DNA from: Leucoraja erinacea
Taxonomy: Eukaryota
NCBI RefSeq assembly: GCF_028641065.1
Contig: NW_026576285.1
Coordinates: 1-64,000, forward strand
DNA: 64,000 nt
Reading direction: 5' to 3'
Shown: positions 16,376 through 52,022 of the stretch, one piece after another
How positions within the stretch are numbered: position 1 is the first letter of the stretch
Layout of the letters: every line of letters starts with the position of its first letter
The notes under the pieces: generated by a model
What the model saw: only the letters and a program-made list of their open reading frames with translations
What the model was told of the DNA's origin: nothing
The model's database searches: none
Translations under genes and position numbers: made by a program

Positions 16376-17278
16376 CACATTAGGGGCAATTTATATTTAT
16401 ACAAAGCCAATTAGCCGACAAACCTGTATGTCTTTGGAGTGTGGGAGGAAACCAAGATCTCTGAGAAAACTCAAGCGGTCACGGGGAAAACTTACAAACT
16501 CCATACAGACAGCAGTCTTGTACCTTGGTCTATGGCACTGTGAGGCAGCAATATGTTTGGAGAAGTTGGAAGAATTCTGCCTGCGGCAGAAACACCACTA
16601 CAGAATGCCGACCTGATCCTATATTAACGATGGTTCCAGGTTCCTTTGATGGAATTAAGAAAGGAAAGAAACCCTGGATATATGCCCCAGGTGTGAAATA
16701 AGCTCATATTTGTTACAAGGACAATTACTTTAGTTTAGGTTAGAGATAAAGCATGAAAACAGACCCTTCAGCCCACTGTGCCCTCATCGCCCAGCAATAT
16801 CTGTACATCAGTACTATCCCACATACGATTACAATCTACAATTTTTACCGAAGCCAATTAACCTACAAACATGTGAGTCTTTGGATTGTTGGATGAAACT
16901 GGAACAATTAGAGAAAACCCTCACAGTCACGAGGTCAATGTACAAACTCCGTACCGACAACACCCGGAGTCAGGATCGAACCCAGGTCTCTGTAGCTGTG
17001 AGGCAGCAACTCTACCACTGTGCCACCATGCTACCCTGTGTCATTAGTATTGTGTGTTGAAATGTTTCCATCAGTGATTTTACTTCGGAGTCGCGTGAGT
17101 GACTACGTGAAGAACCCGCTCAGTGCGCAGGCGCGGCATTACGCCAGCAGTGCAACAGCGGCGGCAGCTGGAGTCAGGCTCTCCAGCTGCACTTTAAAAC
17201 GGACCGTCAGGTAAGTAGACGGTGCGTTGGGATAACAGAGGAGAGTCGCATTTAGTGTTTTGCAGGATTTCACAGAAC

Positions 17279-18517
17279 ATGTCTCAACGCAGAAAACTCT
17301 CGTATAGAACTGCCCGCGCTTTAACTCCACCAGAGGAGCGTTCAATTCCAGCGGGGCAGCAACCGGCGGCAGCGTCGCTCTCAGAGCGTTTCGCTATCCC
17401 CGAGACCGAGCCTGACCCAGTCACACCAGAGTCTGCACGGCGGACTGGGAAAGCGGCCAGGAAGACCAATCGGCCGGTCGAATCCGATTCGTCGGAGGGG
17501 GACATGTCTCCCCCAAAGCGGAGGAGAGACAGCCGCCTGAGCTGCATTCAGCAGCTCCTGGAGGAGATGGTCTACCGGGAACAGCAGCGCTCCCGGAGAG
17601 ACAGGACAGGTACCTCCTCCATAGTGTCGTGTCAGGCACTGCCCTTTGCTACCTCATACCAGAAGGCTAGCATTGGTGACCAGGGCAGGGCTGGTCTGGA
17701 ACAGGGGCAGGCGGACAAAATCGTGAGTATGCATGGGGTGCAGGAACAGGAACAGCTGTTGGGTGTGGTGGACCGCTTCGTAGCAACCCCACGGGCTGGA
17801 GCACCGCTGGAGCCAAAAATGGCAGCCAGTATTAACCACCTATCCAATAAACCTCTACTGGAAAAGGTGCTCGCCGAGGTGCTGGAAGAACATACAGCAC
17901 CAGAGAACTGTGAGGCCCTTAAGGGAAAAAGCCTCAACAGCCAAATCTGGGGAAATGTGGGGGCCCCTATTCGGGCACAAGAACTCAAGCTACAGCGGAT
18001 CCTAAGGCTCCTGACGTCAGCTATCACAGCCTTTGCTCGTTCTGTGGAGACAACGGAGATGAGTACACACCAGCAGGATGTCCTGGCATTAATGTGTACC
18101 ACACAATTCGAACTGAACAATCTCCGGAGGGAAAATATAAGACCTGCCCTCAATCCCAAATTTGCTGGCTTGTGCAAAGCCCCAGCTGCGGAGGCTGACT
18201 CACTGCTGTTTGGGAAAGATCTGAACAAAAAGCTGATGGACATGGAAGAGGCATCAAAAACCTTCGGCCTCATGAGGGCAGGCCACGGGACGAGCAAACC
18301 ACGACCTCCGATACCCAAGCGGCAGCACCCCACGGCATCCACCAGTCGACGTCTGGAATATGGGACTGGTGAACGCTTGGGGCCGCATTATCCCCAAAGA
18401 TCTTTTTTAGATAAGGGCCCGCCGCGGACCCCCTGGAAAATGCGCCTCCCCCCAACATCGCCAGCACGTCATCAGAACAAAGCACTCAGAAAACAGAAAA
18501 GACAAAACCGCCAATAA
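17279..18517 (+). CDS. DIRS gag-like ORF1
   Basis: Open frame of about 412 aa from the first ATG (MSQRRK...), first ORF inside the DIRS termini. Contains LNNLRRENIRPAL and LLFG-type motifs. Confidence 0.8.
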   Translation: MSQRRKLSYRTARALTPPEERSIPAGQQPAAASLSERFAIPETEPDPVTPESARRTGKAARKTNRPVESDSSEGDMSPPKRRRDSRLSCIQQLLEEMVYREQQRSRRDRTGTSSIVSCQALPFATSYQKASIGDQGRAGLEQGQADKIVSMHGVQEQEQLLGVVDRFVATPRAGAPLEPKMAASINHLSNKPLLEKVLAEVLEEHTAPENCEALKGKSLNSQIWGNVGAPIRAQELKLQRILRLLTSAITAFARSVETTEMSTHQQDVLALMCTTQFELNNLRRENIRPALNPKFAGLCKAPAAEADSLLFGKDLNKKLMDMEEASKTFGLMRAGHGTSKPRPPIPKRQHPTASTSRRLEYGTGERLGPHYPQRSFLDKGPPRTPWKMRLPPTSPARHQNKALRKQKRQNRQ

Positions 18518-18519
18518 CC

Positions 18520-19850
18520 AAGGAGGTAGGTGGGTCTGGTTCCTACCAGCATATAGAGAATAAGGGTGCCTTACTAACAGGGGGGAGATTACACTTGTTT
18601 AAAAAAGCATGGGGGATGATCACGAGTGACAAGTATATACTCAACAGCATTAGAGGATATAAAATACAGTTTATATCAGAATCAACACCGCCAGTTCAAC
18701 ATTGGCCCGAAAGGGTATTTTCTCCCTCCAAAAAAGAGCAACGGGAGGGACAAGCTGAACTGGTGAGACTTATAAATAAGGGGGTCATAGAAAAGACCAA
18801 ACATGAACCCTTGGGATTTGTATCCAATATATTTACCAAAACCAAAAAAGATGGTGGATGTCGCATCATCATTGACTTAACAAGTTTGTTAAGTATATAC
18901 ATTTCAAAATGGAAACATTTGTGACTGCTAGACAACTGATTTCAAAGGATACTACATGGCAAGCATTGATCTCAAGGATGCTTACTATCTAGTACCCATA
19001 CATAAGGATCATAGCAGATACCTAAAATTTATCTGGATGGGGCAGCTGTGGCAGTACAAAGCATTGCCTAATGGGCTCATGTCAGCCCCAAGATTGTTCA
19101 CAAAAATATTGAAGCCAGCCATGGCAATATTAAGGAAACAAAAACATATAGTCATGGCATATTTGGATGATATCCTCATAGTAGGGAAAACTATGGAATT
19201 AGCTGTGGCAGCAGTCTCAGCTACAAAACAGCTCCTTGAAACTCTGGGATTCGTCCTACATCCAGATAAATCCAAGTTAAATCCATCCTCTATTATGGAC
19301 TAGCTGGGGTTCACAATTAACTCAGTCCAAATGACTATTACCCTGCCAAGGGAAAAGATGATTGCATTAGCACAATCATGCAATTAATAGTCAACAAAAG
19401 ACCAACTATTCGACAAGTAGCAACAGTAATTGGTAAAATGGTAGCAGCATTTCCGGCTACACAATTTGGACCTTTGCATTATCAAAATTTACAAAGAGCA
19501 AAGGTGCAGGCACTAAAACAACATAAAGGTCACTATGATCGGGTCATGATGTTACCCACGGAAGCAATATCAGAGCTACAGTGATGGACACAAAATGTTT
19601 GGCATAGTTTTAGTCCTATTATCATTACTAATCCTACTTTAGTTCTTCAAACAGATGCCAGTGCTCAAGGCTGGGGAGCAACTAACTCCATATCCAGCAC
19701 AAGTGGTAGATGGACTAACTCAGAATCATCATTACTATCTACACTGGGCATTAACTATTTAGAAATGTTGGGCGCCTTTTATGGTTTAAAAGCATATGCA
19801 TCAAATATGCAGCACTTGCATGTTCGATTACAAATAGATAATACTATATT
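18520..19850 (+). pseudogene. DIRS reverse transcriptase / RNase H, disrupted
   Basis: Motifs GGRL, KKDGGCRIIIDL, SIDLKDAYY, LPNGL, YLDD and TDAS-GWG are split across frames, with stops at 19301 and 19582. A probable start ACCATGG appears as ACCAAGG 2 nt after the gag stop. Confidence 0.9.
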
Positions 19851-19856
19851 ATCCAT

Positions 19857-20426
19857 ATGGGCGGCATAAAATCTTTATCATGCGACAAATTGGTCAATAT
19901 GATTTGGCAATGTTGTGTCGAAAGACATATTTGGCTTTCAGCTACCTATCTACCAGGTAAGCTAAACACAGTGGCAGACACCAGGTCACGCAAATTCAAT
20001 GACAACATCGAATGGATGTTAAATCCTAAAGCATTTGCTAAAATTGTCAAGCAATATGGAACGCCAGATATCGATTTATTTGCATCAAGACTAAATCACC
20101 AGTTAACTATGTATGTCGCTTGGGAACCAGATCCAGAGGCAGCAGCGGTAGATGCCTTCACGCTGGATTGGGGAAAGTTCTTTTTCTATGCCTTTCCTCC
20201 CTTCTGCCTCATCAGTCGGGTACTTCGCAAAATCCAGATGGACTCGGCTTCTGGTATTTTGGTGGTACCCGACTGGCCTACACAGCCATGGTTCCCAGTA
20301 CTACATGACATGGTGGTGGAATCACCAATGGTGTTTCCCAGTCATCCAGGACTATTGGTTCACCCAGTGTCAGGCATAAGCCACCCATGCCATCAAGACA
20401 TTAAACTCCTGGGTTGCAGATTCTGA
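19857..20426 (+). CDS. DIRS RNase H C-terminus plus N6-adenine methyltransferase-like domain
   Basis: YLPGKLNTVAD, DIDLFASRLNHQL, DAFTLDW, YAFPPF and VVPDWPTQPWFP motifs, typical of the DIRS1 MT domain. Confidence 0.85.
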   Translation: MGGIKSLSCDKLVNMIWQCCVERHIWLSATYLPGKLNTVADTRSRKFNDNIEWMLNPKAFAKIVKQYGTPDIDLFASRLNHQLTMYVAWEPDPEAAAVDAFTLDWGKFFFYAFPPFCLISRVLRKIQMDSASGILVVPDWPTQPWFPVLHDMVVESPMVFPSHPGLLVHPVSGISHPCHQDIKLLGCRF

Positions 20427-21337
20427 ACAGACCCTACCTGGACCTGGGATTATCCAAACAAACCATCACCACCATGTCAGCATCCCTGCGAACATCTACC
20501 AAGAGGCAGTACTTAACCAGCATCAAAAAATGGGAGAAGTACTGCCAGGAAACAGGGACATCATATGAAACAGCCACAGTAACCAACGTATTGGAGTTCC
20601 TGGCCTATCTACACCATCATGAAGGGATCAGCTACAGTGCCATCAATACGGCACGCAGTGCTCTTTCCGCGTACCTCAAACCAGCAGGACATCAGGCCAT
20701 GGGATCCCATCCACTGGTGGTTAAACTGATGAGGGGCATTTACAACATCAAGCCCCCTAAGCCCAGGTATACCCATATTTGGGACATCAGTGTCATCCTG
20801 GCATACCTCAGGGAATGGCCGCCAGCTAGATCCCTCAGCCTCGAGCAATCAACACTGAAGACGCTCATGCTGATGGCACTGGTATCTGCTCAGAGGGTCC
20901 AGTCACTACACAAATTGAGACTGGACAACATGAAAACAACTCCAGACCAGATAACATTCATTCTACAAGGTCTGGTGAAACAAAGCAGGCCAGGAACATC
21001 CAATTCACTAGTGGTATTCCGGGCCTACCCACCAGAGCCACGATTGTGTGTGGTGGCCCATCTACTACAGTATATAGACACAACCCACAACATCAGAGGG
21101 AGTGAACAAGCCTTATGGGTCAGCCACAAAAAACCTCATGGCCGGGTAACAAGCCAAACCATCTCAAGATGGCTAAAACAGGTATTGGAAGCTGCTGGGA
21201 TAGATATTAACACCTTTAAATCTCATTCCACTAGGGCAGCCTCCACATCAACAACAGCTAGGATGGATGTACCTATTGACCCCATCCTGAATGGTCGAGG
21301 GAATCCACATTCCGAACATTCTATAATAAGCCATTGA
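20414..21337 (+). CDS. DIRS tyrosine recombinase (C-terminus frameshifted)
   Basis: SAM-like N-terminus (INTARSALS), catalytic R in SAQR, and HSTR. The frame drifts before the expected W and catalytic Y. Confidence 0.88.
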   Translation: MQILNRPYLDLGLSKQTITTMSASLRTSTKRQYLTSIKKWEKYCQETGTSYETATVTNVLEFLAYLHHHEGISYSAINTARSALSAYLKPAGHQAMGSHPLVVKLMRGIYNIKPPKPRYTHIWDISVILAYLREWPPARSLSLEQSTLKTLMLMALVSAQRVQSLHKLRLDNMKTTPDQITFILQGLVKQSRPGTSNSLVVFRAYPPEPRLCVVAHLLQYIDTTHNIRGSEQALWVSHKKPHGRVTSQTISRWLKQVLEAAGIDINTFKSHSTRAASTSTTARMDVPIDPILNGRGNPHSEHSIISH

Positions 21338-23960: not shown

Positions 23961-24265
23961 TTTAAGATGTTAAAGATATCCAGTGATGTGTGACTGCTCT
24001 ACCTTTCCTTGGTATTCTTAGGTGATTCATTCCCTCTGGCATAAAAAAGCTTATGCCAACCAGTAGCAATAAGGAAGGGACAAAACTTGGATGATGTTTT
24101 AACTAACCATATAACCATATAACAATTACAGCACGGAAACAGGCCATCTCGGCCCTACAAGTCCATGCCGAACAAATTTTTTTCCCCTTAGTCCCACCTG
24201 CCTGCACTCGTACCATAACCCTCCATTCCCTTCTCATCCATATGCCTATCCAATTTATTTTTAAA

Positions 24266-27142
24266 TTATACCAATGAACCTGCCTCCACCACTTCCACTG
24301 GGAGCTCATTCCACACCACCACCACTCTCTGCGTAAAGAAGTTCCCCCTCATATTACCCCTAAACTTCTGTCCCTTAATTCTGAAGTCATGTCCCCTTGT
24401 TTGAATCTTCCCTATTCTCAAAGGGAAAAGCTTGTCCACATCAACTCTGTCTATCCCTCTCATCATTTTAAAGACCTCTATCAGGTCCCCCCTTAACCTT
24501 CTGCGCTCCAGAGAATAAAGACCTAACTTATTCAACCTATCTCTGTAACTTAGTTGTTGAAACCCAGGCAACATTCTAGTAAATCTCCTCTGTACTCTCT
24601 CTATTTTGTTGACATCCTTCCTATAATTTGGCGACCAAAATTGTACCCCATACTCCAGATTTGGTCTCACCAATGCCTTGTACAATTTTAACATTACATC
24701 CCAGCTTCTATACTCAATGCTCTGATTTATAAAGGCTAGCATACCAAAAGCTTTCTTTACCACCCTATCTATATGAGATTCCACCTTCAAGGAACTATGC
24801 ACGGTTATACCCAAATCCCTCTGTTCAACTGTATTCTTCAATTCCCTACCATTTACCATGTACGTCCTATTTTGATTTGTCCTGCCAAGGTGTAGCACCT
24901 CACATTTATCAGCATTAAACTCCATCTGCCACCTTTCAGCCCATTTTTCCAAATGGCCTAAATCACTCTGTAGACTTTGGAAATCCTCTTCATTATCCAC
25001 AACACCCCCTATCTTAGTATCATCTGCATACTTACTAATCCAATTTACCACACCTTCATCCAGATCATTGATGTACATGACAAACAACAAAGGACCCAAC
25101 ACAGATCCCTGAGGCACCCCACTAGTCACCTGCCTCCAACCCGATAAACAGCCATCCACCATTACCCTCTGGCTTCTCCCATTCAGCCACTGTTGAATCC
25201 ATCTTGCTATTCCTGCATTTATACCCAACAGTTGAACCTTCTTAACCAACCTTCCATGAGGAACCTTGTCAAAGGCCTTACTAAAGTCCATATAGACAAC
25301 ATCCACTGCTTTACCCTCGTCAATTTCCCTAGTAACCTCTTCAAAAAATTCAAGAAGATTAGTCAAACATGACCTTCCAGGCACAAATCCATGTTGACTG
25401 TTCCTAATCAGACCCTGTTTATCTAGATGCTTATATATATTGTCTCTAAGTATCTTTTCCATTAATTTGCCCACCACTGAAGTCAAACTAACAGGTCTAT
25501 AATTGCTAGGTTTACTCTTAGAACCCTTTTTAAACAATGGAACAACATGCGCAGTACGCCAATCCTCGGGGACTATTCCCGTTTCTAATGACATTTGAAA
25601 TATTTCTGTCATAGCCCCGGCTATTTCTACACTAACTTCCCTCAATGTCCTAGGGAATATCCTGTCAGGACCTGGAGACTTATCCACTTTTATATTTTTC
25701 AAAAGTGTCAGTACTTCTTTTACTTTGAACCTCATAGTATCCATAGCTACTCTACTAGTTTCCCTTACCTCACATAATTCAATATCCTTCTCCTTGGTGA
25801 ATACCGAAGAAAAAAAATTGTTCAATATCTCCCCCATCTCTTTTGGCTCTGCAGATAGCTGTCCACTCTGTCTCTCCAATGGACCAATTTTATCCCTCGT
25901 TATCCTTTTGCTATTAATATAGCTGTAGAAACCCTTTGGATTGACTTTCACCTTACTTGCCAAAGCAACCTCATATCTTCTTTTAGCTTTTCTAATTTCT
26001 TTCTTAAGATTCTTTTTACATTCCTTATACTCCTCAAGCACCTCATTTACTTCATGCTGCCTATAATTATTGTAGATCTCCCTCTTTTTCCGAACAAGAT
26101 GTCCAATTTCCCTTGAAAACCAGGGCTCTTTCCAATTTTTACTGTTTCCTTTCAACCGAACAGGAACATAAAGATTCTGTACTCTTAAAATTTCCCCTTT
26201 AAATGTCCTCCATTTCTCTTCTACATCTTTCCCATAAAACAAAATGTCCCAGTTCACTCCTTTTAAATCATCTCGCATCGCATCAAAGTTAGCCTTTCTC
26301 CAATCAAAAATCTCAACCCTAGGTCCAGTTCTGACCCTCTCCATAATTATCTTGAAACTAATGGTATTGTGATCACTGGACCCGAAGTGCTCCCCAACGC
26401 ATACCTCCGCCACCTGTCCCATCTCATTTCCTAACAGGAGGTCCAGCACTGCCCCTCCTCTAGTAGGTACCTCTATGTATTGCTGCAAAAAACTATCCTG
26501 CACACATTTTACAAACTCCAACCCATCCAGCCCATTTACAGAATGTGTTTCCCAGTCTATGTGTGGAAAGTTGAAATCTCCCACAATCACTACCTTGTGC
26601 TTACTACTAATATCTGCTATCTCCTTACATATTTGCTCTTCCAATTCTCGTTCCCCATTTGGCGGTCTATAATACACCCCTATAAGAGTTGCTGCACCTT
26701 TCCCACTTCTCAATTCCACCCAAATAGCCTCCCTAGATGAGCCCTCCAATCTATCCTGCCAAAGCACTGCTGTAATATCTTCCCTGACTAGCAATGCAAC
26801 ACCTCCACCTCTTGCCCCTCCAATTCTATCACACCTGAAGCAGCGAAATCCTGGAATATTTAGTTTCCAATCACAGCCCTCCTGCAACCACGTTTCACTG
26901 ATCGCCACAACATCATACTTCCAGGTGTCTATCCAGACTCTAAGCTCATCAACCTTTCTTACAATGCTCCTAGCATTAAAATATGCACATTTAAGAAAAC
27001 CCCCGTCTCTTATTCTCTGTTTATTTCCTTTTTTTTCTTTCTCCTCTTGTGTCCGAGTGCTTCCCATTTCTGCTTCCTGCCTCCCATTCTGTCTACTACC
27101 TTTCGCTATTTGAGTCCCTCGCCCCAACCATTCTAGTTTAAA
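24266..27142 (-). CDS. CR1 ORF2 (APE endonuclease + reverse transcriptase)
   Basis: Motifs NARS, ISETWL, GDFN, SDH, KSPGPD, QHGF, DFSKAFD, PQGS and YADD. The frame is open across the ORF1 stop and ends in a late premature TAA. Confidence 0.93.
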   Translation of the reverse strand, partial: FKLEWLGRGTQIAKGSRQNGRQEAEMGSTRTQEEKEKKGNKQRIRDGGFLKCAYFNARSIVRKVDELRVWIDTWKYDVVAISETWLQEGCDWKLNIPGFRCFRCDRIGGARGGGVALLVREDITAVLWQDRLEGSSREAIWVELRSGKGAATLIGVYYRPPNGERELEEQICKEIADISSKHKVVIVGDFNFPHIDWETHSVNGLDGLEFVKCVQDSFLQQYIEVPTRGGAVLDLLLGNEMGQVAEVCVGEHFGSSDHNTISFKIIMERVRTGPRVEIFDWRKANFDAMRDDLKGVNWDILFYGKDVEEKWRTFKGEILRVQNLYVPVRLKGNSKNWKEPWFSREIGHLVRKKREIYNNYRQHEVNEVLEEYKECKKNLKKEIRKAKRRYEVALASKVKVNPKGFYSYINSKRITRDKIGPLERQSGQLSAEPKEMGEILNNFFSSVFTKEKDIELCEVRETSRVAMDTMRFKVKEVLTLLKNIKVDKSPGPDRIFPRTLREVSVEIAGAMTEIFQMSLETGIVPEDWRTAHVVPLFKKGSKSKPSNYRPVSLTSVVGKLMEKILRDNIYKHLDKQGLIRNSQHGFVPGRSCLTNLLEFFEEVTREIDEGKAVDVVYMDFSKAFDKVPHGRLVKKVQLLGINAGIARWIQQWLNGRSQRVMVDGCLSGWRQVTSGVPQGSVLGPLLFVMYINDLDEGVVNWISKYADDTKIGGVVDNEEDFQSLQSDLGHLEKWAERWQMEFNADKCEVLHLGRTNQNRTYMVNGRELKNTVEQRDLGITVHSSLKVESHIDRVVKKAFGMLAFINQSIEYRSWDVMLKLYKALVRPNLEYGVQFWSPNYRKDVNKIERVQRRFTRMLPGFQQLSYRDRLNKLGLYSLERRRLRGDLIEVFKMMRGIDRVDVDKLFPLRIGKIQTRGHDFRIKGQKFRGNMRGNFFTQRVVVVWNELPVEVVEAGSLV

Positions 27143-28065
27143 GTCTCCCCAGCTGCCTTTGCAAATTTCCCCGCTAGGATATTGGTCCCCCTCGGGTTCA
27201 AGTGCAACCCATCCTTGCTGTACAGGTCCCACCTTCCCCAAAAGAAGTCCCAATGATCCAGGAACTTGAATCCCTGCCCTCTGCACCAGTCTTTCAGCCA
27301 CGCATTTATCCTCCACCTCGCTCCATTCCTACTCTCACTGTCGCGTGGCACAGGCAGTAATCCTGATATGGTTACCTTTTTGGTCCTTTTTTTTAACTCT
27401 CCTCCCAACTCCCTAAATCCTCCCTTCAGGACCTCTTCCCTTTTTTTTCCTATGTCATTGGTACCTATATGTACCACGACCTCAGGCTCCTCTCCCTCTG
27501 ATTTAAGGATATCTTGGATGCGTTGAGTCACGTCCGAGACCTTGGCACCAGGGAGGCAGACCACCATCCTGGTCTCCCGACTGCGTCCACAGAATCGCCT
27601 ATCCGACCCCCTAACAATAGAGTCCCCAATTACTATGGCCCTCTTTTTTTCCCTAGCTTTTGGAGCAACAGGGCCGGTCTCTGTGCTGGAGGCCCGTCCG
27701 CTGTCACTACCCCCGGGTAGGCTGTCACCCCCATCTGTACTCAAACAGGAGTACTTATTTGCGAGGTGTACCGACATTGGAGTACTCACTCGTTCCTGCC
27801 TCTGCCCCTTGCCCTTCCTTAACGTGACCCACATGTCTCTCTCCCGTGGTTTTGGTGTGACCACCTCTCTATAACTCCCCTCTATGACCTCCTCACTCTC
27901 CCTGATCAGAGCGAGGTCATCGAGCTGCTGCTCCAGGATCCTAATACGGTCCCTTAGGAGCCCCATCTCGCTGCACCTGGTGCAGATGTGGACGTCTGGA
28001 AGGCCATCCGACACCATGACCTCCCACATCTGACATCCAGAACAGTATACTGCTCTGACTGTCAT
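27133..28065 (-). CDS. CR1 ORF1 (zinc finger / coiled coil + SGNH esterase)
   Basis: CxxC...CxxC, a leucine zipper, and the motifs IGDS, PGA, HIGTND and DGLH. 310 aa, intact. Confidence 0.93.
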   Translation of the reverse strand: MTVRAVYCSGCQMWEVMVSDGLPDVHICTRCSEMGLLRDRIRILEQQLDDLALIRESEEVIEGSYREVVTPKPRERDMWVTLRKGKGQRQERVSTPMSVHLANKYSCLSTDGGDSLPGGSDSGRASSTETGPVAPKAREKKRAIVIGDSIVRGSDRRFCGRSRETRMVVCLPGAKVSDVTQRIQDILKSEGEEPEVVVHIGTNDIGKKREEVLKGGFRELGGELKKRTKKVTISGLLPVPRDSESRNGARWRINAWLKDWCRGQGFKFLDHWDFFWGRWDLYSKDGLHLNPRGTNILAGKFAKAAGETLN

Positions 28066-28424
28066 TCTCCCGCCTTACCCTGGATCTGATACCAGTATAA
28101 CACAATAGAAACTGCTGGGAGAAATCAGCAGGTATCTGACTCACAACAGCTGCTCCCTCGTGACCTTTAAACTGCACCTTTATTATATAAACAAAAAGCA
28201 CTGTACCTTTAGCCCACTGTACCCTTGGCTCACTGTACCTTTACTAAAGAACTGCACCTTTAACCCACTGTACCTTAACTAAAGCACTGCCCCTTTAACC
28301 AGAAAGCACAAATGCTAACCTGAGGTTGCACCCAATCAGCTGCTTCCTCTAGTCTGCTTCCACCAATCAGCGGCTTCCACCAGAACCCTCACTATGGAGT
28401 GTGGAACGTTACGGATTTTGGTAA

Positions 28425-28620
28425 GCCCTGACCCTCCTCCACTGTTCACCAACGGTCCTGGGCCTCTGTGAAAACAAGCCCCGCGCCCGATTTATATACT
28501 CACCGCCCTGACCCTCCTCCACTGTTCACCAACGGTCCTGGGCCTCTGTGAAAACAAGCCCCGCGCCCGATTTATATACTCACCGCCCTGACCCTCCTCC
28601 ACTGCTCACCAACGGTCCTT
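28425..28620 (-). repeat. 80-bp tandem monomers, CR1 5' UTR (~2.4 copies)
   Basis: gccctgaccctcctcc recurs at 80-bp intervals (about 28425, 28505 and 28585). Confidence 0.9.
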
Positions 28621-29731: not shown

Positions 29732-30393
29732 CCTCTCTATCTCCCTCTCCCTCGTCCCCTTCTCTCTCCCCCTCTCTCTCACCCCTCCCCCTCCCCTCTC
29801 TCCCCTGTCTCACCCCTCTCCCCTTCCCCCTCTATTCTCTCTCCCCCCTCTCTCTCCCCCCACTCTCTCCCCACTCTCTCTCTCCCCCCTCGCTCTCTTC
29901 TCTCTATCTCCCTCCCACCTCACTCTCCTCCTCTCTCGTCCCTCTCTCCTCTCACTCTCCCCCTCTCTCTCGTCCCCTCTCTCCCTTCTCCTCCCCCCAA
30001 CTCTCTCTCCCCTCTCTTTCCCCTAACTCTCTCTCCCCTCTTTCCCCTAACTCACTCCCCCCTCTCTCTCCCCCCCTCTCTTTCTTCTCTCTCCCCCTCT
30101 TCTCTCTCTCTCTCTCTTTCTCCCTCTCTATCTCTCCCTCTCTACACAATCTCCCCTCTCTCTCTGNNNNNNNNNNNNNNNNNNNNNNNNNNNNNNNNNN
30201 NNNNNNNNNNNNNNNNNNNNNNNNNNNNNNNNNNNNNNNNNNNNNNNNNNNNNNNNNNNNNNNNNNNNNNNNNNNNNNNNNNNNNNNNNNNNNNNNNNNN
30301 NNNNNNNNNNNNNNNNNNNNNNNNNNNNNNNNNNNNNNNNNNNNNNNNNNNNNNNNNNNNNNNNNNNNNNNNNNTCTCTCTCCCCCCCTCTCC

Positions 30394-34600: not shown

Positions 34601-37600
34601 GGAATATCCTGTCCGGACCTGGAGACTTATCCACTTTTATATTTCTCAAAAGTGTCAGTACTTCCTCTTCTTTGATCCTCATAGTTTCCATAGCTACTCT
34701 ACTTGTTTCCCTTACCTCACATAATTCAATATCCTTCTCCTTGGTGAATACCGAAGAAAAGAAATTGTTCAATATCTCCCCCATCTCTTTTGACTCTGCA
34801 CCACTCTGACTCTCTAATGGACCAATTTTATCCCTCGTTATCCTTTTGCTATTAATATAGCTGTAGAAACCCTTTCGATTTACTTTCACCTTACTTGCCA
34901 AAGCAACCTCATATCTTCTTTTAGCTTTTCCTATTTCTTTCTTGAGATTCTTTTTACATTCTTTATACTCCTCAAGCACCTCATTTACTCCATGCTGCCT
35001 ATAATTATTGTAGGTCTCTCTCTTTTTCCGAACCAAGTGTCCAATTTCCCTTGAAAACCATGGCTCTTTCCAATTTTTACTATTTCCTTTCAACCGAACA
35101 GGGACATAAAGATTCTGTACTCTTAAAATTTCACCTTTAAATGTCCTCCACATCTTTCCCATAAAACAAACTGTCCCAATTCACTCCTTTTAAATCCTTT
35201 CGCATCTCATCAAAGTTAGCCTTTCTCCAATCAAAAATCTCAACCCTAGGTTCAGTTCTGACCCTATCCATAATTATATTGAAACTAACGATATTGTGAT
35301 CACTGGAGCCGAACTGTTCCCCAACGCATACCTCCGCCACCTGACCCGTCTCATTTCCTAACAGGAGGTCCAGCACTGCCCCTTCTCTAGTAGGTACTTC
35401 TTTGTATTGCTGCAAAAAACTATCCTGCACACATTTTACAAACTCCAACCCATCCAGCCCATTTACAGAATGTGTTTCCCAGTCTATGTGTGGAAAATTG
35501 AAATCTCCCACAATCACTACCTTGTGCTTACTACTAATATCTGCAATCTCCTTACATATTTGCTCTTCCAATTCTCGCTCCTCATTTGGCGGTCTATAAT
35601 ACACCCCTATAAGTGTTTCTACCCCTTTCCCATTTCTCAGTTCCACCCAAATAGCCTCCCTAGACGAGCCCTCTAATCTATCCTGCCAAAGCACTGCTGT
35701 AATATCTTCCCTGATAAGTAATGCAACACCTCCACCTCTTGCCCCTCCAATTCTTTCACACCTGAAGCAACAAAATCCTGGAATATTTAGTTTCCAATCA
35801 CAGCCCTCCTGCAACCATGTTTCACTGATCGCCACAACATCATACTTCCAGGTGTCAATCCAGGCTCTAAGTTCATCCACCTTTCTTACTATGCTCCTAG
35901 CATTAAAATATACACATTTAAGAAACGCACCATCTCTTGTTCTCTGATTATTTTCTTTTTCTGATCTCTCCCCTACATTTTGGGTCAGAGTGTTACCATT
36001 CTCTGCCCCATTACACACTGACTGCTAGCTTTCCCAATTCGAGTCCCTCCCCCCAACCATACTAGTTTAATGTCTCCCTTTGCAAATCTCCCCACCAGGA
36101 TATTGGTCCCTCTCGAGTTCAAGTGCAACCTGTCTTTTCTGTACAGGTCGCACCTTCCCCAAAAGAGGTCCCAATGATCCAGAAGATATTTTCAAGGTGT
36201 ACAGCCACCGGGGTACTCACCAGTCCCTGCCTCTGCCCATTGCCCTTCCTAACTGTGACCCAGTTTTCTGTCTCCCGTGGTCTTGGAGTGACCACCTCCC
36301 TGTAACTCCTTTCTATAACCTCCTCGCTCTCCCTGAGCAGACAGAGGTCATCGAGTTGCTGCTCCAGGTTCCTGACACGGTCTCTTAGGAGCCCCATCTC
36401 GACGCACCTTGCGCAGATGTGGACGTCTGGAGGGCACTCAGATTCCATGACCTCCCACATCTGACATCCGGAACAGTAAACTGCCCCGGCCCTCATTCTC
36501 CCCCTTATCCTGGATACAATAAAGCCTTACCTGGGATAAAGCCAATCAGCTGCTTCCTCTGGTCCTCTTCCACCAATCAGAGGCTTCCACCAGAATCCTT
36601 CTCTGGAAGTGAGATGGAACGTTGCAGATTTGGGTAACTCACAGCTCCAGGTACCTTATCAAATGCTTTCTGAAAGTCCAGGTACACTACATCCACTAGC
36701 TCGCCCTTGTCCATTTTCTTAGTTAACCATATAACATATAAACCATATAACAATTACAGCACGGAAACAGGCCACCTCGACCCTTCTAGTCCGTGCCGAA
36801 CACATAATTTCCCCTAGTCCCATATACCTGCGCTCAGACCATAACCCTCCATTCCCTTCCCATCCATATAACTATCCAATTTATTTTTAAATGATAAAAA
36901 CGAACCTGCCTCCACCACCTTCACTGGAAGCTCATTCCACACAGCTACCACTCTCTGAGTAAAGAAGTTCCCCCTCATGTTACCCCTAAACTTCAGTGCC
37001 TTAATTCTCATGTCATGTCCCCTTGTTTGAATCTTCCCTACTCTCAGTGGGAAAAGTTTTTCCACGTCAACTCTGTCTAACCCTCTCATCATTTAAAAAA
37101 CCTCTATCAAGTCCCCCCTTAACCTTCTGCGCTCCAAAGAATAAAGCCCTAACTTCCCAAAGATTAATCAAGCATGATTTCCCCTTCGTAAATTCATGCT
37201 GACTCGGACCGATCCTGTTACTGCTATCTAAATGTGCGGTTATCTCATCTTTTATAATTGACTCCTCCCCACCACCGACGTCAGGCTAACGGGTCTATAA
37301 TTCCCTGTTTTCTCTCGCCCGCCTTTCATAAAAAGTGGGATAACATTAGCTACCCTCCAATCCACAGGAACTGATCCCGAGTCAAAAATAATCAACAATG
37401 CATCCATGATTTCTAGAGCCACTTCCTTAAGTATCCTGGGATGCAGACCATTAGCCCCTTGGGATTTATCAGCCTTCAGTCCCATCAGTCGATCCAACAC
37501 CATTTCCTGCCCAATGTGGATTTCCTTCAGTTCCTCTGTCACCCCAGATCCTCTGGCCACTACTATATCAGGAATATTCTTTGTGTCCTCCTGACACTTT

Positions 37601-48715: not shown

Positions 48716-49466
48716 GAAGTATATTTTTATGGCCCATTCTAGTGAGAATATTGATGAATGAAAAACAAGAAAACTGTTCTTTTGGACAGCACTATTATGG
48801 GGGTCACGGGGCAGTAGAGGTAGAGCTACTGCCTTACAGCGCCAGCGACCCGGGTTCGATCCTGACTACAGGTGCTGTCTGTATGGAGTTTGCACGTTCT
48901 CCCCGTGACCTGCATGGGTTTTCTCCAAGACCTTTGATTTCCTCCCACACTCCAAAGACGTACAGATTTGTAGGTTAATGGGCTTTGTGTAAATATTAGA
49001 TTGTGTGTCGTGTGTGTGCGTGCGCGCCTGCGTGTGGTAGCGATAGTGCGGTAATCGCTGGCCGGTGCGGACTCGGTGGGCTGAAGGGCCTGTTTCTGCT
49101 CTGTATCTCTGAACTAAAGTATTAACGTCTGTATCAAAACACTAAGGAAAATAAAGTCATCGAACACAGAAACTTGTGTCTGTGAGAGTGGTCAAGCACT
49201 AATCCCACACTAAACTGTTCCAAATGTTGCAGGAGTCCAGAACCAGGGGTCAGTTTAAAACTGAGGGGTAGGCTATTTAGAACTGAGATGAGGAAGAACT
49301 TTTTCAACCAGATAGTTGTGAATCTGTGGTATTTTCTGCCACAGAAGGCAGTGGAGACCAATTCATGGGATGGTTTCAAGACAGTTAGATTTAGCTCTTA
49401 GGGCTATTGGAATCAAATAATATGGGGGGGAAAGCAGGAACGAGGTAATGATTTTGTATGATCAGC

Positions 49467-49820
49467 CGTCGGAGAGCAGTGGAGGAGGGTCAGGGCGGTG
49501 AGTACTTAAATCGGGCGCGCGGGGCTTGTTTTCACAGAGGCCCAGGACCGTCGGAGAGCAGTGGAGGAGGGTCAGGGCGGTGAGTACTTAAATCGGGCGC
49601 GGGGCTTGTTTTCACAGAGGCCCAGGACCGTCGGAGAGCAGTGGAGGAGGGTCAGGGCGGTGAGTACTTAAATCGGGCGCGGGGCTTGTTTTCACAGAGG
49701 CCCAGGACCGTCGGAGAGCAGTGGAGGAGGGTCAGGGCGGTGAGTACTTAAATCGGGCGCGGGGCTTGTTTTCACAGAGGCCCAGGACCGTTGGAGAGCA
49801 GTGGAGGAGGGTCAGGGCTT
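49467..49820 (+). repeat. 80-bp tandem monomers, CR1 5' UTR (~4.4 copies)
   Basis: ggagagcagtggaggagggtcaggg starts at 49471, 49553, 49633, 49713 and 49793. Confidence 0.93.
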
Positions 49821-51746
49821 TTTTACCGAAATCCGTAACGTTCCACACTCCATAGGGAGGGTTCTGGTGGAAGCCGCTGATTGGTGGAAGCAGACTAGAG
49901 GAAGCAGCTGATTGGGTGCAACCTCAGGTTAGCATTTGTGCTTTCTGGTTAAAGGTGCAGTGCTTTAGTAAAGGTACAGTGAGCCAAAGGTACAGTGGGC
50001 TAAAGGTACAGTGCTTTTTGTTTATATAATAAAGGTGCAGTTTAAAGGTCACGAGGGAGCAGCTGTTGTGAGTCAGATACTGGCTGATTTCTCCCAGCAG
50101 TTTCTATTGTATTATACTGGTATCAGATCCAGGGTAAGGCGGGAGAATGACAGTCAGAGCAGTATACTGTTCTGGATGTCAGATGTGGGAGGTCATGGTG
50201 TCGGATGGCCCTCCAGACATCCACATCTGCACCAGGTGCAGCGAGATGGGGCTCCTAAGGGACCGTATTAGGATCCTGGAGCAGCAGCTCGATGACCTCG
50301 CTCTGATCAGGGAGAGTGAGGAGGTCATAGAGGGGAGTTATAGAGAGGTGGTCACTCCAAACCCACGGGAGAGAGACATGTGGGTCACATTAAGGAAGGG
50401 CAAGGGGCAGAGGCAGGAACGAGTGAGTACTCCAATGTCGGTACACCTCGCAAATAAGTACTCCTGTTTGAGTACGGATGGGGGTGACAGCCTACCCGGG
50501 GGTAGTGACAGCGGACGGGCCTCCAGCACAGAGACTGGCCCTGTTGCTCCAAAAGTTAGGGAAAAAAAGAGGGCAATAGTAATTGGGGACTCTATTGTTA
50601 GGGGGTCGGATAGGCGATTCTGTGGACGCAGTCGGGAGACCAGGATGGTGGTCTGCCTCCCTGGTGCCAAGGTCTCAGACGTGTCTCAACGCATCCAAGA
50701 TATCCTTAAATCAGAGGGAGAGGAGCCTGAGGTCGTGGTACATATAGGTACCAATGACAAAGGAAAAAAAAGGGAAGAGGACCTGAAGGGAGGATTTAGG
50801 GAGTTGGGAGGAGAGTTAAGAAAAATGACCAAAAAGGTAAAAATCTCAGGATTACTGCCTGTGCCACGCGACAGTGAGAGTAGGAATGGAGCGAGGTGGA
50901 GGATAAATGCGTGGCTGAAAGACTGGTGCAGAGGGCAGGGATTCGAGTTCCTGGATCATTGGGACTTCTTTTGGGGAAGGTGGGACCTGTACAGAAAGGA
51001 TGGGTTGCACTTGAACCCGAGGGGGACCAATATCCTAGCGGGGAAATTTGCAAAGGCAACTGGGGAGACTTTAAACTAGAATGGTTGGGGCGAGGGACTC
51101 AAATAGCGAAAGGTAGTAGACAGAATGGGAGGCAGGAAGCAGAAATGGGAAGCACTCGGACACAAGAGGAGAAAGAAAAAAAAGGAAATAAACAGAGAAT
51201 ATGAGACGGGGGTTTTCTTAAATGTGCATATTTTAATGCTAGGAGTATTGTAAGAAAGGTGGATGAGCTTAGAGTCTGGATAGACACCTGGAAGTATGAT
51301 GTTGTGGCGATCAGTGAAACGTGGTTGCAGGACGGCTGTGATTGGAAACTAAATATTCCAGGATTTCGTTGCTTCAGGTGTGATAGAATTGGAGGGGCAA
51401 GAGGTGGAGGTGTTGCATTGCTAGTCAGGGAAGATATTACAGCAGTGCTTTGGCAGGATAGATTGGAGGGCTCATCTAGGGAGGCTATTTGGGTGGAATT
51501 GAGAAGTGGGAAAGGTGTAGCAACACTTATAGGGGTGTATTATAGACCGCCAAACGGAGAACGAGAATTGGAAGAGCAAATATGTAAGGAGATAGCAGAG
51601 ATTAGTAGTAAGCACAAGGTAGTGATTGTGGGAGATTTCAACTTTCCACACATAGACTGGGAAACACATTCTGTAAATGGGCTGGATGGGTTGGAGTTTG
51701 TAAAATGTGTGCAGGATAGTTTTTTGCAGCAATACATAGAGGTACC
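49467..51746 (+). mobile_element. CR1 family A 5' half (monomers, ORF1 50147-51079, partial EN)
   Basis: Near-identical to 26470-28620. ORF1 is intact (310 aa), ORF2 has a TGA at about 51202, and the copy breaks at IEVP. Confidence 0.94.
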
Positions 51747-52022
51747 ACTACCGCTACCACTCTCTGAGTAAAGAAGTTCCCCCTCATGTTACCCCTAAAC
51801 TTCTGTCCCTTAATTCTCAAATCATGTCCTCTTGTTTGAATCTTCCCTACTGTTAATGGAAAAAGCTAATCCACATCAATTCTGTCTATCCCTCTCATCA
51901 TTTTAAAGACCTCTATCAAGTCCCCCCTTAACCTTCTGCGCTCCAAAAAAATAAAGACCTAACTTGTTCAACCTTTCTCTGTAACTTAGGTGCTGAAAAT
52001 AAGGCAACATTCTAGTAAATCT
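51747..52022 (-). mobile_element. CR1 family A RT C-terminal fragment, inverted, no tail
   Basis: RFTRML...FRGNMRGNFFTQRVV on the minus strand, abutting the plus-strand copy. Confidence 0.85.

Follow-up and report, generated by a model that had tools for sequence, protein, structure and literature searches.

In-phase slippery heptamer at the ORF1/ORF2 junction suggests translation of ORF2 by programmed −1 frameshifting in esterase-type CR1 retrotransposons

The coronavirus site U_UUA_AAC and the retroviral gag-pol sites are canonical signals for programmed ribosomal frameshifting into the −1 frame (−1 PRF). For long interspersed nuclear elements (LINEs), translation of the second open reading frame (ORF2) was still counted as unresolved in a review from 2013 (PMC3894237). 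In most vertebrates, the predominant retrotransposons belong to the CR1 group (PMC13343379), and the esterase-bearing members of this group (type IVB) combine an ORF1 carrying a zinc finger/leucine zipper region and an SGNH esterase with an ORF2 carrying an APE-type endonuclease and a reverse transcriptase (RT) (PMC4120745, PMC13343379). Frameshifting is not mentioned for type IVB CR1s in the available parts of these two papers, nor is the translation of ORF2 described there. Here we analyzed a 64,000-nt stretch of Leucoraja erinacea DNA (RefSeq assembly GCF_028641065.1, contig NW_026576285.1, positions 1 to 64,000, forward strand; hereafter the window), in which the ORF1 of a near full-length CR1 element (copy A) closes with an in-phase U_UUA_AAC directly followed by its stop codon and overlapped by ORF2 in the −1 frame. 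Judging from this layout and its conservation, ORF2 of esterase-type CR1s is probably translated by programmed −1 frameshifting into an esterase-endonuclease-RT fusion, a reading to which we give a probability of about 0.75.

Compared with viral −1 PRF (PMC7618472), the CR1 junction shares a canonical zero-frame heptamer and a replicative enzyme encoded downstream in the −1 frame, whereas it has no stem-loop or pseudoknot 5-9 nt downstream and lies in a non-LTR (long terminal repeat) retrotransposon; the excess of structural protein in the viral systems is a feature that we infer for CR1. The signal therefore resembles a viral −1 site but fails one defining canonical feature, the folded stimulator. 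Closer in element type are Dictyostelium TRE5-A and TRE3-A, which are also APE-type non-LTR elements and whose ORF2 is said in a review to need a −1 frameshift (PMC5911963), whereas their ORF1 and clade are unrelated to CR1 and their host is a protist; the available part of PMC5006619 adds nothing on that frameshift. Other non-LTR precedents for recoding are HeT-A (PMC5009743) and the Paramecium elements, for which +1 frameshifting or readthrough was suggested (PMC5405496). SART1, with its UAAUG stop-start, and L1, with unconventional reinitiation, likewise have a bicistronic LINE RNA with ORF2 coupled to ORF1 translation (PMC5972666, PMC3894237), but they make a separate ORF2 protein (ORF2p), and the CR1 junction has neither an in-frame stop-start AUG nor an inter-ORF spacer. 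CR1 frameshifting was not found in the full-text literature searched, a scope that left early CR1 papers outside, so an earlier mention is possible: there is no such statement in the available parts of PMC13343379, PMC4120745, PMC2734521, PMC11303007, PMC4316615 and PMC3894237, and the 2016 recoding review PMC5009743 (449,034 characters) does not contain "CR1" in its first 300,000. The proposal made here takes a mechanism known from other systems to an element class for which no description of it was found.

The features on which the analysis builds are the following (window coordinates, strand, description).

24104..28619, minus, near full-length CR1 LINE copy A, delimited by blastn against copies B and C and by TRF arrays at both ends
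28425-28619 (5' end) and 24104-24123 (3' end), minus, TRF tandem arrays of copy A
27133..28065, minus, ORF1, 310 aa, ATG at 28065, ending ...ETLN and stop
24266..27142, minus, ORF2 in the −1 frame, with Pfam endonuclease PF03372 and RVT_1 PF00078
27136..27142, minus, slippery heptamer U_UUA_AAC in ORF1 phase
27133..27135, minus, ORF1 stop TAG abutting the heptamer; TAG or TAA among relatives
27129..27131, minus, out-of-frame ATG 1 base past the stop, opening an 11-codon frame; absent in other families
27116..27129, minus, G-rich tract with a run of four G starting 10 nt past the heptamer; candidate stimulator
27065..27067, minus, ATG of the linker, in frame with ORF2, codon 26 when counted from the slip site; AAT in copy C
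51070..51079, plus, copy B junction, heptamer and stop identical to copy A
36062..36071, minus, degenerate junction of copy C, ATTAAACTAG behind a deletion of 8 nt; the linker has another indel, of 1 nt

On the minus strand the junction of copy A reads GGG GAG ACT TTA AAC TAG AATGGTTGGGGCGAGGG. The original prediction had described an in-phase T_TTA_AAC (27142-27136) closing ORF1 as GAG ACT TTA AAC TAG, a stop adjoining the slippery site (TAG, 27135-27133) and ORF2 in the −1 frame, and all three points were borne out: the −1 reading, TTT AAA CTA GAA TGG, is open for 958 codons through the endonuclease and RVT_1 domains assigned by Pfam. The same ten letters had also been noticed at 51070-51079 and a degenerate version at about 36062-36071, which are copies B and C of our list. 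ORF1 encodes an SGNH/GDSL esterase (PF13472, E 2.8e-14, approximately 27633-27187) downstream of an N-terminal part in which a Cys motif and a coiled-coil-like region were recognized by reading the sequence; its closest named relative is from Leucoraja erinacea (94% identical). In ORF2, a charged linker of about 50 aa precedes the APE endonuclease (approximately 26980-26369) and the RT (approximately 25522-24866), and a premature TAA (24268-24266) ends the frame 26 codons short of the usual family end. The whole element runs from 80-bp tandem units at its 5' end through ORF1 and ORF2 to a 3' untranslated region closing with 2.5 units of an 8-bp repeat (24104-24123), with no poly(A). With its esterase ORF1, APE-RT ORF2 and short tandem-repeat 3' end, copy A is an esterase-type (IVB) CR1 LINE; this domain plan and 3' repeat are what it has in common with the described type IVB elements, and its junction agrees with that of rows carrying the LINE/CR1 label in the consensus library of PMC13343379. 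The 80-bp units lie 5' of both copies A and B (28425-28619; approximately 49466-49818), each with a TATATAAA-like stretch; PMC13343379 describes comparable 5' arrays in ORF1-less elements, whereas copies A and B keep ORF1.

Because ORF2 of copy A stops 26 codons early, its own fusion would measure 310 + 956 = 1,266 aa, and the earlier figure of about 1,290 aa would suit the family as a whole. The transframe peptide had been expected to contain ...TLK-LEW. The tandem-slippage model (PMC7618472) puts tRNA-Asn in the A site at the junction, so that the product would instead read ...GETLN-LEWLGR, with Asn and not Lys, and the predicted transframe tryptic peptide should be AAGETLNLEWLGR (Asn form). 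Copy B is 96% identical to copy A; its ORF1 is intact (50147-51079), its ORF2 linker carries a TGA stop (51202-51204), and ORF2 breaks off near 51750. The motif is not above chance within the window alone (two exact matches; nine with at most one mismatch against 5.25 expected), and copies A and B are nearly identical, so support must come from other lineages.

For vertebrate lineages, we searched the consensus library in the supplement of PMC13343379 by motif in cells of 400 letters, with junctions judged by eye. Twelve matches to tttaaactag and eight to tttaaactaa were obtained, 17 of which lie at ORF1/ORF2 junctions and three of which do not; by label, the junction rows belong to alligator, crocodile, bullfrog, coelacanth, bowfin, chimaera, rays, sharks and one teleost "Crack" element. 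With 15 alternative ways of writing X-Leu-Asn-stop, a subset of all possible ones, 27 matches were obtained and none at a junction. The conservation check proposed with the original prediction thus came out in its favor: the heptamer is kept across lineages, and there is no synonymous erosion among the spellings tried.

The protein level gives a second view of the same constraint. Two sets of ORF1 homologues were used, 66 close ones and a distant set comprising the best 150 of 2,673 representatives (142 new), and an ending was counted only where the C-terminus falls 18-40 aa past the DGxH motif (44 close, 94 distant). LN closes 38 of the 44 close homologues, while the distant endings are LN in 41, GN in 9, EN in 3, KN in 2 and others in 39. 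Named LN-ending ORF1s come from skate, rays, sharks, a snake, two turtles, a monitor lizard and a swallow; five of the ten LN records looked up had a name. If the heptamer is relevant, the codon before Leu must end in U, which bars E, Q, K, M and W. These residues precede LN in 1 of 38 close and 0 of 41 distant homologues, as against 4-14 of 41 at each of the five preceding positions, and ten different residues are in use before LN in the distant set. A final tripeptide that X_XXY_YYZ can encode was present in 54 of 96 intact-ended representatives, against a background of 3.9%. The LN ending closes a predicted C-terminal helix at a fixed 26 aa from DGxH in many homologues, as would be expected if it were kept for the esterase fold, with the −1 overlap incidental and the heptamer devoid of a decoding role; we consider this highly improbable, given that synonymous spellings are absent at junctions, that the preceding codon is limited to residues able to end in U, and that GN and FL substitute for LN together with a canonical heptamer. 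From the U-ending codon before LN and the missing alternative spellings, the heptamer appears to be conserved beyond what the protein would need.

The homologue sets held some further observations. Eight homologues (P0134, P0142, P0145, P0175, P0177, P0188, P0193 and P0200) have KN at the LN position with the stop 2-13 codons later; their preceding residue can always end in A, making A_AAA_AAY possible in a lineage known from protein alone. Three predicted proteins, P0032, P0101 and P0010, continue directly beyond the esterase, either in the −1 frame (F-K-L) or past the stop (LN-L-NG), and are likely single-copy mutations or gene-model joins showing the same junction. An ORF1 homologue labelled Pseudomonas aeruginosa (P0022, 57% identical to copy A ORF1) is probably contamination.

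More distant families were collected by an ORF1 scan of metagenome contigs (three loci) and by an RT-pattern scan blind to the junction, which gave 234 CR1-like contaminant loci in assemblies of prokaryotes, of which the best 80 were taken. The pooled set of 102 sequences contained 48 with an endonuclease start and 17 with an esterase match, four of which (L001-L003 and L005) were left out as cut before the junction or unrelated. ORF1 scans of viral contigs found no LINE and those of plasmids no match, the ORF1 scan of genome contigs returned one short esterase fragment and one bacterial esterase, two further ORF1 scans of genome contigs were empty, and the ORF2 scan of viral contigs had no match. 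A heptamer-plus-G pattern hit 11 loci in genome contigs, one of them a CR1 (L016), and two loci in viral contigs, neither with an esterase or endonuclease match. The CBDHHR01 contigs (L016, L025, L026, L028 and others) are eukaryotic LINE contigs in prokaryote-labelled assemblies.

A canonical in-phase heptamer was found 0-3 nt before the stop in 12 of the 13 esterase loci, the exception being copy C, while elsewhere in these ORF1s in-phase canonical heptamers amount to 4 per 1,937 codons. ORF2 lies in the −1 frame in 9 of the 12 loci with the endonuclease in view. The heptamer itself differs among lineages: L004 reads CAG GGA AAC TAG (G_GGA_AAC) with an 851-codon ORF2 in −1, L006 reads CAG GGA AAC TAC TAG (also G_GGA_AAC) with the junction at the contig end, L020 has U_UUU_UUA one codon ahead of TAA, and L026, L028, L063, L071 and L082 have U_UUA_AAC TAG followed by N7 and G6. 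Between the five deep lineages, esterases are 29-41% identical, with the families of L026 and L082 (64%) counted as one lineage. Distant esterase CR1s exchange three canonical heptamers while the −1 frame stays, wherever it is in view. Two esterase ORF1s carry extra domains, an SH3 in L023:3656-4909 (E 6.8e-09) and a weak PHD finger in L006:22-1296; PMC4120745 reports esterase ORF1s in vertebrate groups only.

As a control, we used 19 loci without an esterase match and with an upstream frame of at least 110 codons; L025 and L034 were not counted at junctions, since both are 5'-truncated and have host flank as their upstream frame. In none of the 19 does a canonical heptamer lie 3 nt or less from the stop, and their ORF2 frames are −1 in five, 0 in seven, +1 in six and ambiguous in one. 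In an RT tree of the unnamed fetched loci, which held no named reference CR1s, the esterase loci fall into one 14-row clade (95/98), and two non-esterase loci with ORF2 in −1, L038 and L044, belong to the same clade. Their ORF1 stop lies 28 nt inside the endonuclease region, no Met stands ahead of the endonuclease, and U_UUU_UUA or U_UUU_UUG occurs at the start of the −1 frame (L038:1297-1303, L044:995-1001), about 50-60 codons before the ORF1 stop, a layout more in keeping with a slip than with reinitiation at the stop.

Other CR1-group loci in this set display different junctions. In the non-esterase loci L022:350-360, L058:1227-1240 and L086:1698-1712, and also in L050, L072 and L076, ORF1 and ORF2 share one frame with a single stop between them and no Met before the endonuclease; three of them have TGA-CAA, a leaky stop context, making stop readthrough a candidate for these elements. 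ORF2 is in +1 and overlaps the ORF1 end in L031:2530-2545, L042:775-790, L052:2010-2020 and L077:1155-1170, with double stops at the ORF1 end in L031, L042 and L077, so +1 recoding is possible by their sequence. The RT sisters of the +1 locus L052 are the frame-0 loci L050 and L076.

Start codons for a separate ORF2p were considered next to the junction and in the linker. An in-frame ATG downstream of the junction had been named as the alternative route to ORF2; it is present at 27067-27065, at codon 26, and it is not conserved. Four related sequencing runs were aligned to 26960-27300, three yielding contig-depth figures and one being a poly(A) RNA run, and in these AAG stands in place of the linker ATG in 53%, 54% and 59% of the contig depth, while 1,197 of 1,244 RNA reads (96%) carry AAG as well. 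In five of five intact loci of the L026 and L082 families (L026, L028, L063, L071 and L082), the first ORF2 Met comes 14 residues past the Asn of the NARS motif, which we take to be an active-site residue of APE-type endonucleases. A start at the linker AUG by ordinary reinitiation or internal initiation, to which the AUG in copies A and B and the pre-endonuclease Met in L004, L020 and several predicted ORF2 proteins would point, is very unlikely in view of the AAG in most related copies, the AAT in copy C and the absence of the AUG from these five loci. Dependence of ORF2 on this ATG had been proposed as a refutation of frameshifting, and the loss of the codon in most relatives speaks against such dependence.

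A separate ORF2p could also arise by AUG-independent termination-reinitiation near the ORF1 stop, the conserved letters then serving to position the post-termination ribosome. In most families nothing separates the site from the stop, the folding tests gave no stimulator, reinitiation in caliciviruses is tolerant of non-AUG starts, and unconventional reinitiation has been proposed for L1 (PMC5972666). Upstream, copy A has UGGGA (TURBS motif 1) at 96 and 117 nt, L082 at 79 nt and L004 at 108 nt. The motif is missing upstream in L020, L026, L028 and L006 and variable in the related runs, which leaves no conserved placement at 40-90 nt. No in-frame AUG overlaps or adjoins the stop, as the adjacent ATG is out of frame and the nearest in-frame one lies 68 nt further, and where copy A has UUG, other families have the codon CAG or CCG. 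Reinitiation of this kind predicts neither the X_XXY_YYZ form, nor its ORF1 register, nor the U-ending codon before LN, nor the switching among three heptamers, and the ORF1 stop inside the endonuclease region of L038 and L044 does not fit it either; we regard it as unlikely.

The reading with the slimmest chance of being correct is that the two frames are joined in RNA, through splicing or because the polymerase slips at the T/A run. Homopolymer runs can slip in transcription, but the poly(A) RNA run, about 1,300 reads deep, has no indel at 2% or above and no splice joint among the rows listed for 27133-27152, a weak test as the reads probably come mostly from dead copies. Across the related runs, no variant, indel or splice joint fell in 27133-27152 among the 40 of 88 variant rows listed. 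The RNA reads span the junction in both orientations, which is not diagnostic of active-copy expression.

The second part of the original signal, the G-rich tract as stimulator, fared less well: the tract is present at 27129-27116, but it forms no stable hairpin and no conserved quadruplex. Predictions without pseudoknots gave no stable 3' fold in the window (z +0.33; second test z −0.3 to +0.4) or in L004, L026 and L082 (z near 0), and there was no Rfam match. A hairpin, of 9 bp and 11 nt on (z −1.8), is present in L020 alone and is reminiscent of an HIV-type signal. In copies A and B, L026, L028, L082 and L023 the heptamer is followed by a G-run at a distance of exactly 10 nt, and in L004 at 12 nt; in the gappy rows of the consensus junctions, a run of at least four G begins within 12 nt of the stop in 13 of 17, and the exact form TAR-N7-GGGGG is found in 6 of 17. 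Quadruplex-driven slips have an optimum of 6-8 nt and four G3 tracts (PMC3919603), a pattern that the G-run here does not match. A quadruplex at the tract was rejected, since a two-tier form exists only in the broken copies C and L016, and so was a long-range partner, since the best duplexes were within or just beyond the range of eight shuffles and lay at unrelated places. The stimulator role of the G tract is accordingly unproven.

Several observations weigh against −1 frameshifting in these elements. Lacking a stem-loop or pseudoknot 5-9 nt downstream, the site is without the second element normal for a −1 signal, and neither 4 of the 17 consensus junctions nor L020 has the G-run. The frame is not −1 in 3 of the 12 esterase loci: L016, from the biased pattern scan, has ORF2 in frame 0 with a G11 run, a −1-frame stop and other breaks, and L023 has it in +1 and is one base shorter than its sister L082; these two and copy C are read as broken copies, so that the expectation of ORF2 always in −1 held for the intact copies. 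In-frame Mets stand before the endonuclease in copy A, L004 (Met 64, 67) and L020 (Met 15, 32), and a Met ahead of the NARS motif is present in five of eight predicted ORF2 proteins, a sixth beginning at the motif edge, so AUG starts are possible in some lineages. No compatible tripeptide occurs in the last two positions of 38 of 96 distant ORF1s. With 40 of 88 variant rows listed, the invariance of the heptamer in the related runs is not established. Finally, the lineages share ancestry, so the counts are not independent trials, and for this reason a product of 5e-15 calculated from them is not taken as a probability.

If frameshifting operates as proposed, most ribosomes would stop at TAG and release the ORF1 protein (ORF1p), whereas a minority would shift back by one base at U_UUA_AAC and continue through the linker, the endonuclease and the RT. 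The pause would come from the abutting stop and the G-run 10 nt downstream, not from a hairpin or pseudoknot, and the fusion would co-assemble with ORF1p as Gag-Pol does with Gag. The arterivirus PRRSV provides a likeness in spacing only: its slippery site is followed by a 10-nt spacer and a C-rich motif bound by nsp1beta and PCBP (PMC4937337), so both systems have an unstructured homopolymer-rich motif 10 nt past the heptamer, but the CR1 motif is G-rich whereas the PRRSV motif is C-rich with known binders. As a further-reaching possibility, esterase CR1s and close sister lineages might make the endonuclease-RT only as a −1 fusion, the slip in U_UUA_AAC lineages being driven by a protein (a host G-run binder or ORF1p) on the G-run 10 nt downstream with no RNA fold; we put this forward tentatively and consider it doubtful.

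Elsewhere in the window, a DIRS-like retrotransposon occupies 17219-21337 on the plus strand, with a gag-like frame and broken RT/RNase H frames read from the translation, as well as a tyrosine recombinase frame (Pfam Phage_integrase). An N run (assembly gap) lies within a G/C-rich low-complexity stretch at approximately 29950-30370.

Should −1 frameshifting be confirmed as the route to ORF2, ORF2p would bear the esterase and the coiled coil at its N-terminus, and ORF2 annotations beginning at an internal Met would be wrong. The ratio of ORF1p to ORF2p would be set as in retroviruses, and CR1 might be exposed to host −1 frameshift inhibitors such as Shiftless. If the slip were in addition protein-driven, it would constitute an arterivirus-like, trans-activated frameshift in a chromosomal mobile element, in which the level of ORF1p or the host could set the output of ORF2.

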